From Candidatus Cloacimonadota bacterium (GTDB taxonomy: Bacteria > Cloacimonadota > Cloacimonadia > JGIOTU-2): a stretch of 64,000 nucleotides of DNA. The stretch's first letter is position 1; every line of letters begins with the position of its first letter. Below the pieces are notes generated by a model that did no database searches, had not been told where the DNA came from, and saw only the letters and a list, made by a program, of their open reading frames with translations. The position numbers and the translations under genes were made by a program. Location of the stretch: contig JBNGBT010000005.1 of NCBI GenBank assembly GCA_049903315.1, positions 32,001 through 96,000 of the forward strand, read 5' to 3'. Of this stretch, positions 22,925 to 24,755 are shown piece by piece.

Positions 22925-23706
22925 TGCACATTCTCACATATCCGATTTCCTCGATTGGAAGGATCATCATCCGGACAGTTCAGGATATTGGCAGATATTT
23001 TATTTTCTTAGGATTAACTGTTAAGAGTTTCGGCAAAGTAGGGAAAAGGTTTCATCTCATATTTGCACAGATGCAGAAGATGGGAGTCGAATCCCTTCCT
23101 TTAATTGCGATCACCTCAGCTTTTACCGGCATGGTCACTGCAGTGCAGGCAACATATCAGACAGGCGGCATCCTTCCATACCGTTATCTAGGAGCGATGA
23201 TCACGAAATCTACAATGATCGAGCTTGCACCTGTACTTACTGCGCTTGTTATGGCTGGGAAGATCGGCGCATCACTTGCTGCGGAACTCGGCACCATGCG
23301 CGTCACCGATCAGATCGATGCGTTGGAAGTGCTTGCAATAAATCCTTATGACTATCTTGTGGTTCCACGTATTATTTCAGGAATAGTCATGCTGCCTGTG
23401 CTCACAGTATTTGCAAATCTGTTTGGCATTCTTTCAGGATATCTTGTCTCTGTTTCATTATATCATGTAACAACTGCAGAATTTCTCAGCGGTATCAGAT
23501 CATTTTTTATTCCTGTTGATTTTTGGAGCGGTATTATTAAGGCAGTTGCATTTGGCATGATCATCACATCAGTGGGTTGTTTCCAGGGATTTTTTGCCCG
23601 TGGCGGTGCAGAAGGCGTGGGAAGAGTAACCACTCGTGCTGTCGTGATCTCATCAATTTTGATATTGGTTACCGATTTCATCGTTGCTGCAGTGATATTC
23701 GGATAA
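22924..23706 (+). CDS. mlaE: MlaE-family ABC permease
   Basis: ELAPVLTAL, AELGTMRVTDQIDALE, GGAEGVG. Confidence 0.88.
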   Translation: MHILTYPISSIGRIIIRTVQDIGRYFIFLGLTVKSFGKVGKRFHLIFAQMQKMGVESLPLIAITSAFTGMVTAVQATYQTGGILPYRYLGAMITKSTMIELAPVLTALVMAGKIGASLAAELGTMRVTDQIDALEVLAINPYDYLVVPRIISGIVMLPVLTVFANLFGILSGYLVSVSLYHVTTAEFLSGIRSFFIPVDFWSGIIKAVAFGMIITSVGCFQGFFARGGAEGVGRVTTRAVVISSILILVTDFIVAAVIFG

Positions 23707-24179
23707 TGTCATTTCATATCGTTCTTTACGAACCTGAAATACCTTCAAATACAGGAAATATCGGCAGATTATGCGTCGGAACACATGCAAAACTGCACCT
23801 GATCAAACCAATGAAATTTCTTCTCAACGATAAATATCTCAAACGAGCCGGACTTGATTATTGGAATAAACTTGATCTTGAAATTCATGATTCGTGGGCA
23901 GATTTCCAAAAGAAATATGAGAATGCACGAAAGTATTATTTTACTACAAAAGCACAGAAATCCTATACCGATATTTCATTTCATGATGGGGATTTTCTGA
24001 TCTTTGGACCGGAAACAAGAGGATTGCCGGAATCGATGTTAAAGAATAATTGGGACAATGCTTACACGATCCCGATGACCAAAGATATTCGATCAATCAA
24101 TTTGAGTAACAGCGTCGCCATTGTGCTGTATGAGGCAGTAAGGCAGGTGGGGATTGATGGAACGCAGATCCGCCGGTAG
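23706..24179 (+). CDS. trmL: tRNA (cytidine/uridine-34 2'-O)-methyltransferase
   Basis: PEIPSNTGNIGR, RAGLDYW, FGPETRGL, RSINLSN; ATG overlaps mlaE stop. Confidence 0.92.
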   Translation: MSFHIVLYEPEIPSNTGNIGRLCVGTHAKLHLIKPMKFLLNDKYLKRAGLDYWNKLDLEIHDSWADFQKKYENARKYYFTTKAQKSYTDISFHDGDFLIFGPETRGLPESMLKNNWDNAYTIPMTKDIRSINLSNSVAIVLYEAVRQVGIDGTQIRR

Positions 24180-24221
24180 GCGGACAAGTAAAATGCTGAC
24201 TAAGCTGATACACGCTGATTT
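24158..24221 (+). repeat. Periodic 'ctgat' repeat interrupted by a GC-rich hairpin
   Basis: tggaacgcagat[ccgccggtaggcggacaagt]aaaatgctgactaagctgatacacgctgattt. Confidence 0.55.
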
Positions 24222-24276
24222 ATATAAGAAAATTTACTCTAAGTATAAATAAAGTGTTAAAGGGAGAGAGGTAAAA

Positions 24277-24340
24277 TGGTCTGGGCGAGAAGATTCGAAC
24301 TTCCGACCTTCCCGATCAATCGGGACGCGCTAATCGGGCT
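24277..24340 (-). pseudogene. Partial tRNA-Pro(UGG) copy with the anticodon arm replaced by hairpin TCCCGATTGATCGGGA
   Basis: Direct repeat of 24610-24674 with 2 substitutions outside the swapped arm; 5' acceptor strand missing. Confidence 0.9.
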
Positions 24341-24348
24341 ATGTTAAG

Positions 24349-24594
24349 TTATTTTTGAGAATTGATGAGTGAGAAAATAAACTTTTTACTTTTTTTGGAT
24401 TTGATGAAGTATTCTTTTTTCATTGCCTCAGAGCGTGTAGTGAAGGATTCTTTATAAACCAATTTCCAAGGGCTACGATGTTTGGTATATGTAGATTGAT
24501 CGGAATTATGCTCGTGGATTCTTCTTTGAAGTTTGTTTGTTGTTCCTATGTAGAATGAGTTCTTCTCATTCTGTAAAATATAAACATAAACCAT
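24349..24594 (-). CDS. Stand-alone GIY-YIG nuclease (Slx1/UPF0213-like)
   Basis: YVYIL...FYIG.T..L.RR..EHN...YTK...PW.LVY.E......A...E..IK. Confidence 0.92.
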   Translation of the reverse strand: MVYVYILQNEKNSFYIGTTNKLQRRIHEHNSDQSTYTKHRSPWKLVYKESFTTRSEAMKKEYFIKSKKSKKFIFSLINSQK

Positions 24595-24609
24595 AATTTT
24601 CCTATAAAA

Positions 24610-24687
24610 TGGTCGGGGCGAGAAGATTCGAACTTCCGACCTCCTGGTCCCAAACCAGGCGCGCTAACCGGGCTGCGCTACGCCCCG
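24610..24687 (-). tRNA. tRNA-Pro (anticodon TGG)
   Basis: CGGGGCG...CGCCCCG-ACCA; anticodon arm CCTGG-TTTGGGA-CCAGG. Confidence 0.96.
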
Positions 24688-24755
24688 ACGTGGAGAGAGA
24701 TTTTTATGCTTGTATTTTTTTGTCAAATTAGATAAATAAAATTAAATATAAGGAA

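Follow-up and report, generated by a model that had tools for sequence, protein, structure and literature searches.

Organisation of the cassette at tRNA-Pro(UGG)

The window analysed in this work, a 64,000-nucleotide stretch of contig JBNGBT010000005.1 from a Candidatus Cloacimonadota genome (assembly GCA_049903315.1), carries on its minus strand a short unit in which a small GIY-YIG nuclease gene has a tRNA gene on one side and an incomplete duplicate of that tRNA on the other, the anticodon arm of the duplicate being exchanged for a palindrome. The genome holding the window is called G000, and other G numbers indicate the genomes that were compared with it. This unit is very probably one member of a recurrent class of tRNA-nested cassettes that combine a nuclease and a hairpin.

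The first gene of the unit is an intact tRNA-Pro(UGG), found with ARAGORN at 24610..24687 (all features of the unit are on the minus strand). Reading from the sequence, it is followed by a 15-nt spacer with an AGGA ribosome-binding motif (24595..24609), by the 81-codon gene of a stand-alone GIY-YIG nuclease, prokaryotic Slx1-like or UPF0213-like and identified by Pfam family PF01541 (24349..24594), and by a second spacer of 8 nt 3' of the stop codon (24341..24348). Then comes the partial tRNA-Pro copy, or remnant, which by comparison with the intact tRNA runs from the D-arm to CCA (24277..24340). In the alignment it consists of a 15-nt D-arm piece with one difference (24326..24340) and a 33-nt piece, also with one difference, made of the variable loop, the T-arm, the 3' acceptor strand and CCA (24277..24309). 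Between them the 16-nt palindrome TCCCGA-TTGA-TCGGGA (TCCCGATTGATCGGGA, 24310..24325) exactly replaces the 17-nt anticodon arm; it starts 23 nt past the nuclease stop codon, and the 8 nt on its 5' side are TTAGCGCG. After the remnant CCA stands TTTTA (24272..24276), the same 5 nt that follow the intact tRNA. The period between the two CCA ends defines a 333-bp block (24277..24609) that parts the intact tRNA from its native downstream flank, the boundary of the insertion being ambiguous within the tRNA repeat. This layout is the one described in a first-pass annotation of the stretch, from the 15-nt and 8-nt spacers to the exact arm swap and the two other differences.

Judging from the alignment, the repeat formed by tRNA-Pro and its remnant is not a chance one: when the remnant was searched against the whole of G000, it matched only itself and tRNA-Pro (E 1.8e-14). 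The tRNA-Pro(UGG) gene is the sole gene of its isoacceptor found in G000 by ARAGORN, and by eye it is identical to the corresponding tRNA of two genomes discussed below, G009, where the site is occupied, and G001, where it is empty. ARAGORN makes no call on the remnant, in which the 5' acceptor strand is missing. The nuclease gene is the only open reading frame (ORF) within the 333-bp insert.

Concerning expression, a TTGACA hexamer lies 34 nt 5' of the tRNA (24721..24726, minus strand) and is a putative promoter element of a transcription unit comprising tRNA and cassette. The sequence ATTTGACA was found at a comparable distance 5' of tRNA-Pro in G009, G001 and G006, while a consensus promoter scan did not call a full promoter at the hexamer. 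The same scan gave no promoter-like site on this strand between tRNA-Pro and the nuclease ATG, and 15 nt leave too little room for the gene to have its own promoter in the spacer. Since these 15 nt alone separate the two genes, the nuclease is probably co-transcribed with the tRNA. No terminator was found in the promoter and terminator scan.

A minimal GIY-YIG protein

The 81-aa product matches PF01541 over residues 2-70 (E 5.5e-18; score 65.5 bits, curated family cut-off 22.6). The only further Pfam match was the overlapping T5orf172 domain (E 1e-05), with no auxiliary domain, and NCBIfam gave nothing above threshold, only a sub-threshold match to a group I intron endonuclease. The nearest solved structures by sequence were PDB entries 1zg2 (E 1.5e-10) and 1ywl (E 1.9e-8), and the match to eukaryotic SLX1 in the PDB sequence search was weak (E 0.008-0.045). 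Residues Y3, Y5, Y15, R25, H29 and E61 were unchanged across six paralogues and orthologues that are 32-63% identical to the window protein; presumably the tyrosines of both motifs, the arginine, the histidine and the catalytic glutamate have the roles assigned to them in work on I-TevI and UvrC. On these sequence criteria the window protein belongs to the GIY-YIG superfamily and, within it, to the stand-alone Slx1-like/UPF0213 group. A DNA-binding domain is absent, the 81 residues corresponding to the bare catalytic domain. Stand-alone GIY-YIG proteins of this type rank among the commonest "hypothetical nucleases" of bacterial genomes and, to our knowledge, only their Ssn branch has a known activity.

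Sister cassettes in the same genome

Five small GIY-YIG genes were found in G000, and four of them lie just downstream of a tRNA or transfer-messenger RNA (tmRNA) gene on the same strand. At tRNA-Asp(GUC) two remnants of the tRNA 3' half stand one after the other behind the nuclease gene, with part of the T-arm swapped for TCCCGA-ggaa-TCGGGA in one and for TCCCGA-taa-TCGGGA in the other. At tRNA-Asn(GUU) the remnant past the nuclease gene extends from the D-loop to CCA and includes 22 nt of flank, with TCCGCCAGCTGGCGGA in place of the 3' anticodon stem, the variable loop and part of the T-stem; upstream of this cassette there is also a full-length tRNA-Asn pseudo-copy carrying the same palindrome. 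In remnants other than that of the window, the hairpin replaces 8-17 nt at varying positions and not always whole arms. The first-pass annotation had asked whether the arrangement of tRNA, GIY-YIG gene and tRNA copy, with a CCCGA..TCGGGA hairpin, recurs at different tRNAs, and it does so at tRNA-Asp and tRNA-Asn in G000 as well as in the survey of 80 loci presented below.

The fourth paralogue is located about 130 nt downstream of tmRNA (G000:C55:228207-231422, 1483-2203), and orthologues of this type adjoin tmRNA in G003, G005 and G006. The short direct repeat AAGACTGACAC(G/A)CCG was noticed on both sides of it. The fifth paralogue is longer (about 100 aa) and lies between two direct repeats of about 115 nt (G000:C11:263622-266822; 1300-1420 and 1780-1900). 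Each of these repeats is an inverted-repeat element starting with GTCATTCTGAGC, and another copy of it, at C44:147325, encloses a TCCCGA hairpin.

G000 has 48 tRNA and tmRNA genes; there is only one gene each for Pro(UGG) and Asp(GUC) and one working gene for Asn(GUU), so that the cassettes sit at indispensable genes. A search of G000 for solo remnants, for which the Asp remnants are too short, returned, apart from the Asn and Pro cassettes, a single 20-nt match to a tRNA-Glu. The latter (G000:C66:173722-173741) is an exact match to part of tRNA-Glu(CTC), is remote from tRNA genes and may be a solo remnant.

Occupied and empty sites among congeners

The genus-level comparison covered 11 genomes. 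At tRNA-Pro the site is occupied in G000, G005 and G009 and empty in G001, G002 and G006; in the remaining five genomes, whose assemblies are 54-95% complete, a Pro-type gene was not found. In G009, tRNA-Pro(UGG) is followed by a 22-nt spacer, an 80-codon orthologue (63% identical), a remnant and the native flank. The D-arm piece of this remnant is more diverged, the 16-nt palindrome is identical to that of the window and the 3' piece is identical to the tRNA. In G001 the identical tRNA-Pro directly abuts the flank that is seen past the G009 cassette, the difference between the two genomes being exactly 340 bp. G005 has the cassette with an identical palindrome, its assembly being broken inside the nuclease gene. 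The unit measures 333-340 bp in all three carriers.

Counted by cassette type, the 11 genomes include eight carriers of the Asn type, five of the Asp type, three of the Pro type, four of the tmRNA type and two of an Ala(GGC) type, and every cassette lineage stays with its own tRNA. Concerning the Pro type, the closest kin by the adjoining gene trmL are G002 for G000 and G001 for G009, both of them with an empty site. The Pro cassette is thus either ancestral, with at least two precise losses, or was gained several times. Signs of amplification and decay were also found. At tRNA-Asp of G004 (C22, ~1309-1737) a full nuclease gene and a hairpin remnant are followed by a second, partial gene, which corresponds to the first 40 codons behind the usual spacer between tRNA and ATG. 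In-frame stops break the Asn-type genes of three genomes, G003 (a TGA), G007 (a TAA) and G006 (three stops), while intact orthologues exist elsewhere.

A look for empty sites in sister genomes had been proposed in the first-pass annotation, as had a small unit of about 330 bp; because the empty sites exist and a larger integrase island is absent, a small unit of 333-340 bp is the correct description. A partial duplication of a tRNA 3' end is typical of integrase insertion, and the cassette could for this reason be taken as the decayed attachment-site remnant of a larger integrase-borne island once present in tRNA-Pro. This appears barely conceivable, as G009 and G001 differ by exactly the 340 bp of the unit, three species share a unit of 333-340 bp, a family hairpin interrupts the repeat and the same tiny design recurs in the survey. 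Moreover, the tyrosine integrase family PF00589 is absent from the contig of the window, its six matches in the genome being all on other contigs.

A dispersed hairpin family linked to the nuclease

The palindrome of the window is not confined to cassettes. G000 contains 11 copies of TCCCGA-N2-6-TCGGGA and 15 of TCCGCC-N2-6-GGCGGA; in controls that joined the left halves to permuted right halves, the mean was 0.55 for TCCCGA (119 permuted partners) and 0.33 for TCCGCC. The occurrence of hairpins and nuclease was then compared over 31 genomes, G000 and 30 relatives. Copies per genome ranged from 0 to 214 for the TCCCGA type and from 0 to 116 for the TCCGCC type, against 0-6 for reversed-pattern controls, and congeners have 2-61 and 4-71 copies of the two types, respectively. 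Nuclease homologues number 0-9 per genome: 24 of the 31 genomes have 1-9, and the seven relatives with no match have 0-3 hairpins in total. Two genomes outside the family are instructive. G019 has a single nuclease gene, behind tRNA-Asn and beside a TCCGCC hairpin, and 116 TCCGCC against 2 TCCCGA copies; in G022 the nuclease gene is flanked by TCCCGAG.. hairpins, and 37 TCCCGA copies were counted against none of TCCGCC. At the level of sequence patterns, these counts make the hairpin of the window one of a family of dispersed palindromes, of which almost none occur in those searched relatives where a nuclease homologue was not found.

Several family hairpins of G000 were also seen within a larger common context (..GGCTTC-hairpin-..ACGCCGCGGCAGGCA..), for example at C22:151168, C22:219964, C44:260529, C11:455244 and C66:183328, which suggests a longer composite repeat.

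The dispersal of the hairpin bears on a classical homing explanation, close to the one proposed in the first-pass annotation, in which the nuclease would cut the cassette-free tRNA gene at the arm, repair would copy the cassette in and the swapped hairpin would give the remnant immunity. Occupied and clean empty alleles do both exist, the replacement of the anticodon arm in the window is exact, and free-standing GIY-YIG homing genes are known in a phage tRNA cluster (SegB; PMC13096335). However, the intact tRNA of occupied genomes is identical by eye to that of the empty G001, and it is the sole copy; tRNA-Pro would therefore stay cleavable and at risk, and immunity through a changed tRNA sequence is disfavoured. 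In addition, the hairpin is found away from tRNAs, the other remnants have 8-17 nt replaced at varying places, other arms included, and not always whole arms, the protein is a catalytic domain of 81 aa without a DNA-binding domain, and recent spread shows no sign. We consider homing of this kind quite improbable, and the targeting of the tRNA stem-loop and the immunity mark proposed with it are unsupported.

Survey of homologous loci across phyla

To see how general the design is, one genome per species was scanned with a four-protein alignment; 276 relatives were confirmed and the best 80 loci were surveyed. These best 80 span at least 15 phyla, the hosts, placed from public titles, including Bacteroidota, Ignavibacteriota, Acidobacteriota, several Patescibacteria groups, Cloacimonadota, Omnitrophota and Thermodesulfobacteriota. 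A tRNA on the same strand lies within 150 nt of the gene at 58 loci and within 900 nt at 68, the further 10 having it in their 900-nt flanks. The tRNA ends within 150 nt upstream at 47 loci, starts within 150 nt downstream at 12, and at one locus both were found. Only 12 loci are without a tRNA, seven of them with a 5' flank shortened by the contig end, and across all surveyed loci there was a single tRNA on the opposite strand.

Pieces derived from the tRNA were detected past the far side of the gene at 57 of the 68 tRNA-bearing loci (blastn-short matches, not all of them checked by eye), the other 11 giving no remnant match. The pieces are 3' parts of the tRNA if this is upstream of the gene and 5' parts if it is downstream. 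GC-rich perfect hairpins stand between or beside them, often replacing the anticodon arm (tRNA positions ~28-43), sometimes the T-arm and sometimes both. Such a hairpin occurs within 350 nt of the gene at 67 of the 80 loci, with stems of the CCCG core (TCCCGA etc.) at 41 loci, TCCGCC at 9, T(C/G)(A/G)GCC at 8 and TTCCG at 5, and at 21 loci an identical stem is present on both sides of the gene. Two or more tandem nuclease copies were found at 17 loci, being 96-100% identical in some and 38-66% in others.

The tRNA-nested design is thus a distinctive and widespread variant of nuclease-hairpin pairs and of free-standing nuclease genes. No description of it was found in the full-text literature; subscription journals and the supplements of the Ssn paper lay outside this search and may bear on it.

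Selection, age and conservation of the hairpin

The ratio of nonsynonymous to synonymous substitution rates (dN/dS) was 0.05-0.17 for Asp-type orthologues and 0.04-0.08 for Asn-type orthologues, where dS was estimable. For the Pro type, the proportions of nonsynonymous and synonymous differences were pN 0.21 and pS 0.82, and the adjoining trmL gave pS 0.62 and pN 0.10 between the same two genomes. Since the synonymous divergence of the nuclease (pS 0.82) is not below that of trmL (pS 0.62), the cassette is at least as diverged as its host, and the comparison of the two genes gives no sign of a recent transfer of the Pro cassette. On codon-level evidence, strong purifying selection acts on the nuclease gene, whose age is at least that of the species split. 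The self-propagating unit imagined in the first-pass annotation does not agree with this picture of a cassette that looks old, vertically kept under purifying selection and not freshly spreading.

Comparison of the three species with the Pro cassette finds the palindrome with its loop, together with the 3' piece, unchanged at 57 of 59 positions, while the end of the ORF and the spacer drift. In the D-arm piece of G009 and G005 only the 8 nt beside the hairpin are nearly unchanged. Asp-type remnants retain the hairpin stems and vary in the loops. As far as can be judged from aligned sequences, this comparison shows that the hairpin too is under purifying selection.

Such constraint leads to consider a domesticated host gene, whose nuclease would serve the cell, for example in single-stranded DNA (ssDNA) restriction or in the control of recombination, like SsnA of Neisseria; the tRNA site would provide strong constitutive expression, and remnants and hairpins would be by-products of old rearrangements. 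Several observations agree with it: purifying selection is strong across saturated synonymous divergence, the divergence of the cassette equals or exceeds that of trmL, of the 11 congeners, 8 keep orthologous cassettes at tRNA-Asn, 5 at tRNA-Asp and 3 at tRNA-Pro, G002 retains its Asn-type gene without remnant or hairpin, and SsnA has a demonstrated cellular role in transformation (PMC11893778). On the other hand, presence is patchy even among closest kin (G000 and G002, G009 and G001), copy number varies from 1 to 9 in 24 genomes and falls to none in seven, broken copies occur in G003, G007 and G006, and divergent tandem copies, 38-66% identical, occur at one tRNA. Expression alone, moreover, needs no constant partial duplication of the tRNA. 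We regard domestication as unlikely, even if it deserves attention.

Contigs assembled from sequencing runs were also searched. In contigs from sea-water DNA runs, the occupied form was present exactly in four studies. In RNA-library contigs of relatives (two studies; window 24277-24563), the ORF and the remnant are covered and the contigs end 0 and 3 nt from the remnant CCA; in a third study, a DNA contig continues past this end. RNA-library contigs indicate presence in the library and are not proof of transcription, and they give a weak hint that the transcript ends near the remnant CCA.

This hint, the probable location of the remnant within the same transcription unit and the high conservation of the hairpin and the 3' piece could fit a role at the RNA level, another suggestion of the first-pass annotation, in which the co-transcribed, hairpin-swapped tRNA copy would be a guide, a decoy, an antitoxin or a 3' stabiliser for the nuclease mRNA or protein. 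Nevertheless, the remnant forms no tRNA-like minihelix because its 5' acceptor strand is missing, the part of the tRNA that is retained varies, being a 3' part with an upstream tRNA and a 5' part with a downstream one, 11 of 68 loci have no remnant match, G002 has neither remnant nor hairpin beside an intact gene, and the same hairpins occur at many unrelated sites. An RNA-level role is on this evidence very improbable.

Comparison with known systems

The closest functional analogy is offered by Ssn proteins, single-domain GIY-YIG enzymes that cut ssDNA beside hairpin repeats (NTS/SRM) flanking their genes; four homologues were purified, each cleaving ssDNA near its own hairpin repeat (Chenal et al., Nat Commun 2025, PMC11893778). 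The cassettes share with Ssn a stand-alone single-domain GIY-YIG protein of ~80-100 aa, short GC-rich hairpin repeats flanking the gene, the dispersal of the same hairpins in tens to hundreds of copies, an abundance that tracks the presence of the gene and several specificities per lineage. As in Ssn, a short hairpin repeat accompanies the gene of the window cassette and recurs elsewhere in G000 (11 copies against 0.55 in controls). However, the published SRM motif of the Ssn system is unmatched here and the hairpin of the window is one-sided only. Furthermore, the word "tRNA" is absent from the main text of PMC11893778, whereas here the gene is nested between a tRNA and its partial copy, with hairpins overwriting the arms of the copy. 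Since the published SRM motif was not found at it, we did not file the cassette as an Ssn member.

REP/RAYT and IS200/IS605 elements also combine a single small enzyme gene with cognate dispersed palindromes and recognition of hairpins in ssDNA, and their long vertical persistence suggests domestication (PMC11893778). They differ in the HUH tyrosine transposase chemistry, which is not the hydrolytic one of GIY-YIG enzymes, and are not known to be nested at tRNAs. Among the Slx1-like/UPF0213 proteins surveyed by Dunin-Horkawicz et al. (2006; PMC1564403), which include 1zg2 and 1ywl, the likeness lies in a minimal catalytic domain with auxiliary domains absent. The passages covered discuss methyltransferase neighbours and a TrmH fusion and assign no function; they mention tRNA for the TrmH fusion, and adjacency to tRNA genes was not met in them.

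Homing genes offer a further comparison. I-TevI and Seg proteins join the nuclease to a sequence-reading DNA-binding domain, and Seg proteins are larger, with DNA-binding regions. The Seg genes of T-even phages, with SegB in a tRNA cluster, resemble the cassettes as small selfish GIY-YIG genes by tRNA genes with presence/absence polymorphism, and the nuclease-driven segmental amplification described in PMC13096335 resembles the tandem arrays found here. Seg genes are instead phage-borne and are not known to have a hairpin family or a hairpin-disrupted partial copy of the target. At tRNA-Pro we found presence/absence polymorphism at a conserved site, as expected of homing genes, but no DNA-binding domain. 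Free-standing homing-endonuclease ORFs of fungal mitochondria insert into the end of a gene and bring a replacement copy of that end. With them the cassettes share a host gene kept intact through partial duplication and a displaced dead piece past the ORF; those ORFs, however, concern organellar protein genes, are usually in-frame fusions and are not known to involve hairpins, while here a tRNA is duplicated and the intact copy is the same as at empty sites.

Islands inserted by integrases into tRNA genes likewise restore the tRNA and repeat its 3' part directly at their far end. Here an integrase is absent, a hairpin breaks the repeat and the insert amounts to 333-340 bp; the 333-bp insert of the window contains a single 81-codon ORF and no recombinase. 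Taken by analogy, the cassette would work most like Ssn/SRM and more loosely like REP/RAYT, and, among free-standing homing genes, it is like those that bring a duplicate of part of the host gene.

A model for the tRNA-nested cassette

The reading that we prefer, with a probability of about 0.5, is that the 333-bp cassette is a mobile or once-mobile module of nuclease and hairpin, transcribed from the tRNA promoter, whose nuclease would cut ssDNA at its own hairpin like Ssn. The mechanism could comprise four steps. The promoterless nuclease gene would ride on the tRNA transcript, the processing of the tRNA freeing its mRNA. The protein would recognise the TCCCGA..TCGGGA stem in ssDNA exposed by replication or by heavy transcription of the tRNA, and nick alongside it. 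Breaks would be repaired through recombination between the intact tRNA and the remnant, with three possible outcomes: tandem amplification, precise loss via the 33-nt repeat, and gain after DNA transfer between relatives. In this last step, portable homology arms would be provided by the tRNA sequence, which is highly conserved, and native flanks would thereby abut the tRNA and the remnant, as in G009 compared with G001. Finally, hairpins would spread to further sites and be tolerated by dead tRNA copies only; the arms of remnants would thus be overwritten and never those of a working tRNA. That all four steps (co-transcription with the tRNA, ssDNA nicking, repair by recombination and spread of hairpins) hold as proposed has, in our estimate, less than an even chance.

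Several observations weigh against a mobile module of the Ssn kind. First, the Pro cassette looks old, and vertical descent with precise losses fits as well as mobility. The empty sites do not help in this respect: a clean tRNA would be left by recombination between the 33-nt repeats, and a loss therefore looks the same as a site never occupied. Among DNA contigs of the four sea-water studies, there was no contig or joint skipping the cassette; contigs drop rare variants, and this is not evidence for fixation. Secondly, the link between nuclease and hairpin has exceptions. The window gene has a hairpin on one side only, and the Asn-type gene of G002 is intact and constrained without remnant or hairpin, so a neighbouring hairpin is dispensable. 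In genome family f4 the gene-flanking hairpins did not follow the presence of the nuclease, a gene-free genome having 8 copies of one hairpin type and all five genomes having 2-3 of another. It should also be noted that one genome family dominates the co-occurrence counts and that the genomes are not independent. Thirdly, the published SRM motif had no match within 500 nt of any of the five nuclease genes of G000, and its 7 matches in the whole genome compare with 2, 3 and 7 in mononucleotide shuffles. Lastly, the protein tree (FastTree, 82 rows, 81 columns) is poorly resolved, with 9 of 78 branches starred. Its small supported clades share tRNA identity and host group alike, and tRNA switching and horizontal transfer are not separated by them.

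In a bolder form, which we consider doubtful, cassettes of about 330 bp would be the smallest autonomous parasites of bacterial chromosomes. Their GIY-YIG domain, with nothing added to it, would recognise its own 16-nt hairpin in ssDNA, enter tRNA units across species by using the nearly universally conserved tRNA sequences as homology arms, and seed REP-like palindromes. If true, this would explain the origin of Ssn-type pairs of nuclease and hairpin and many "orphan" bacterial tRNA fragments. The fixed tRNA-nested design of a large branch of the family, the dead copies overwritten by hairpins and the gene-linked repeat families point to one natural history, that of a nuclease-hairpin element of tRNA genes. 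Numerous tRNA fragments and small palindromes that annotations leave unexplained would be accounted for in this way. The element could also add new specificities (TCCCGA, TCCGCC and other stems) to programmable ssDNA cutters.

Neighbourhood of the locus

The ORFs within about 8 kb around the cassette encode a DnaB-like protein, a permease, a SpoU methylase (TrmL-like) and a DUF6125 protein. Terminal inverted repeats bounding the cassette were not seen by eye, the flanking repeat being the 15+33-nt tRNA piece. An insertion sequence or a miniature inverted-repeat transposable element does not fit, the nuclease being the only ORF of the unit.

A second family palindrome, TCCGCCGGTAGGCGGA, is located at window positions 24169-24184, about 90 nt past the remnant, where it extends over the final codons and the stop codon of the SpoU/TrmL-like gene (ORF 23577..24179); it has no counterpart at the end of trmL in G006 and G005. 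The orientation of the locus varies as well, tRNA-Pro(UGG), with or without a cassette, being directed toward the 3' end of trmL in G000, G005 and G006 and the opposite way in G009, G001 and G002. Because this pattern departs from trmL similarity, the tRNA-Pro locus seems prone to rearrangement.

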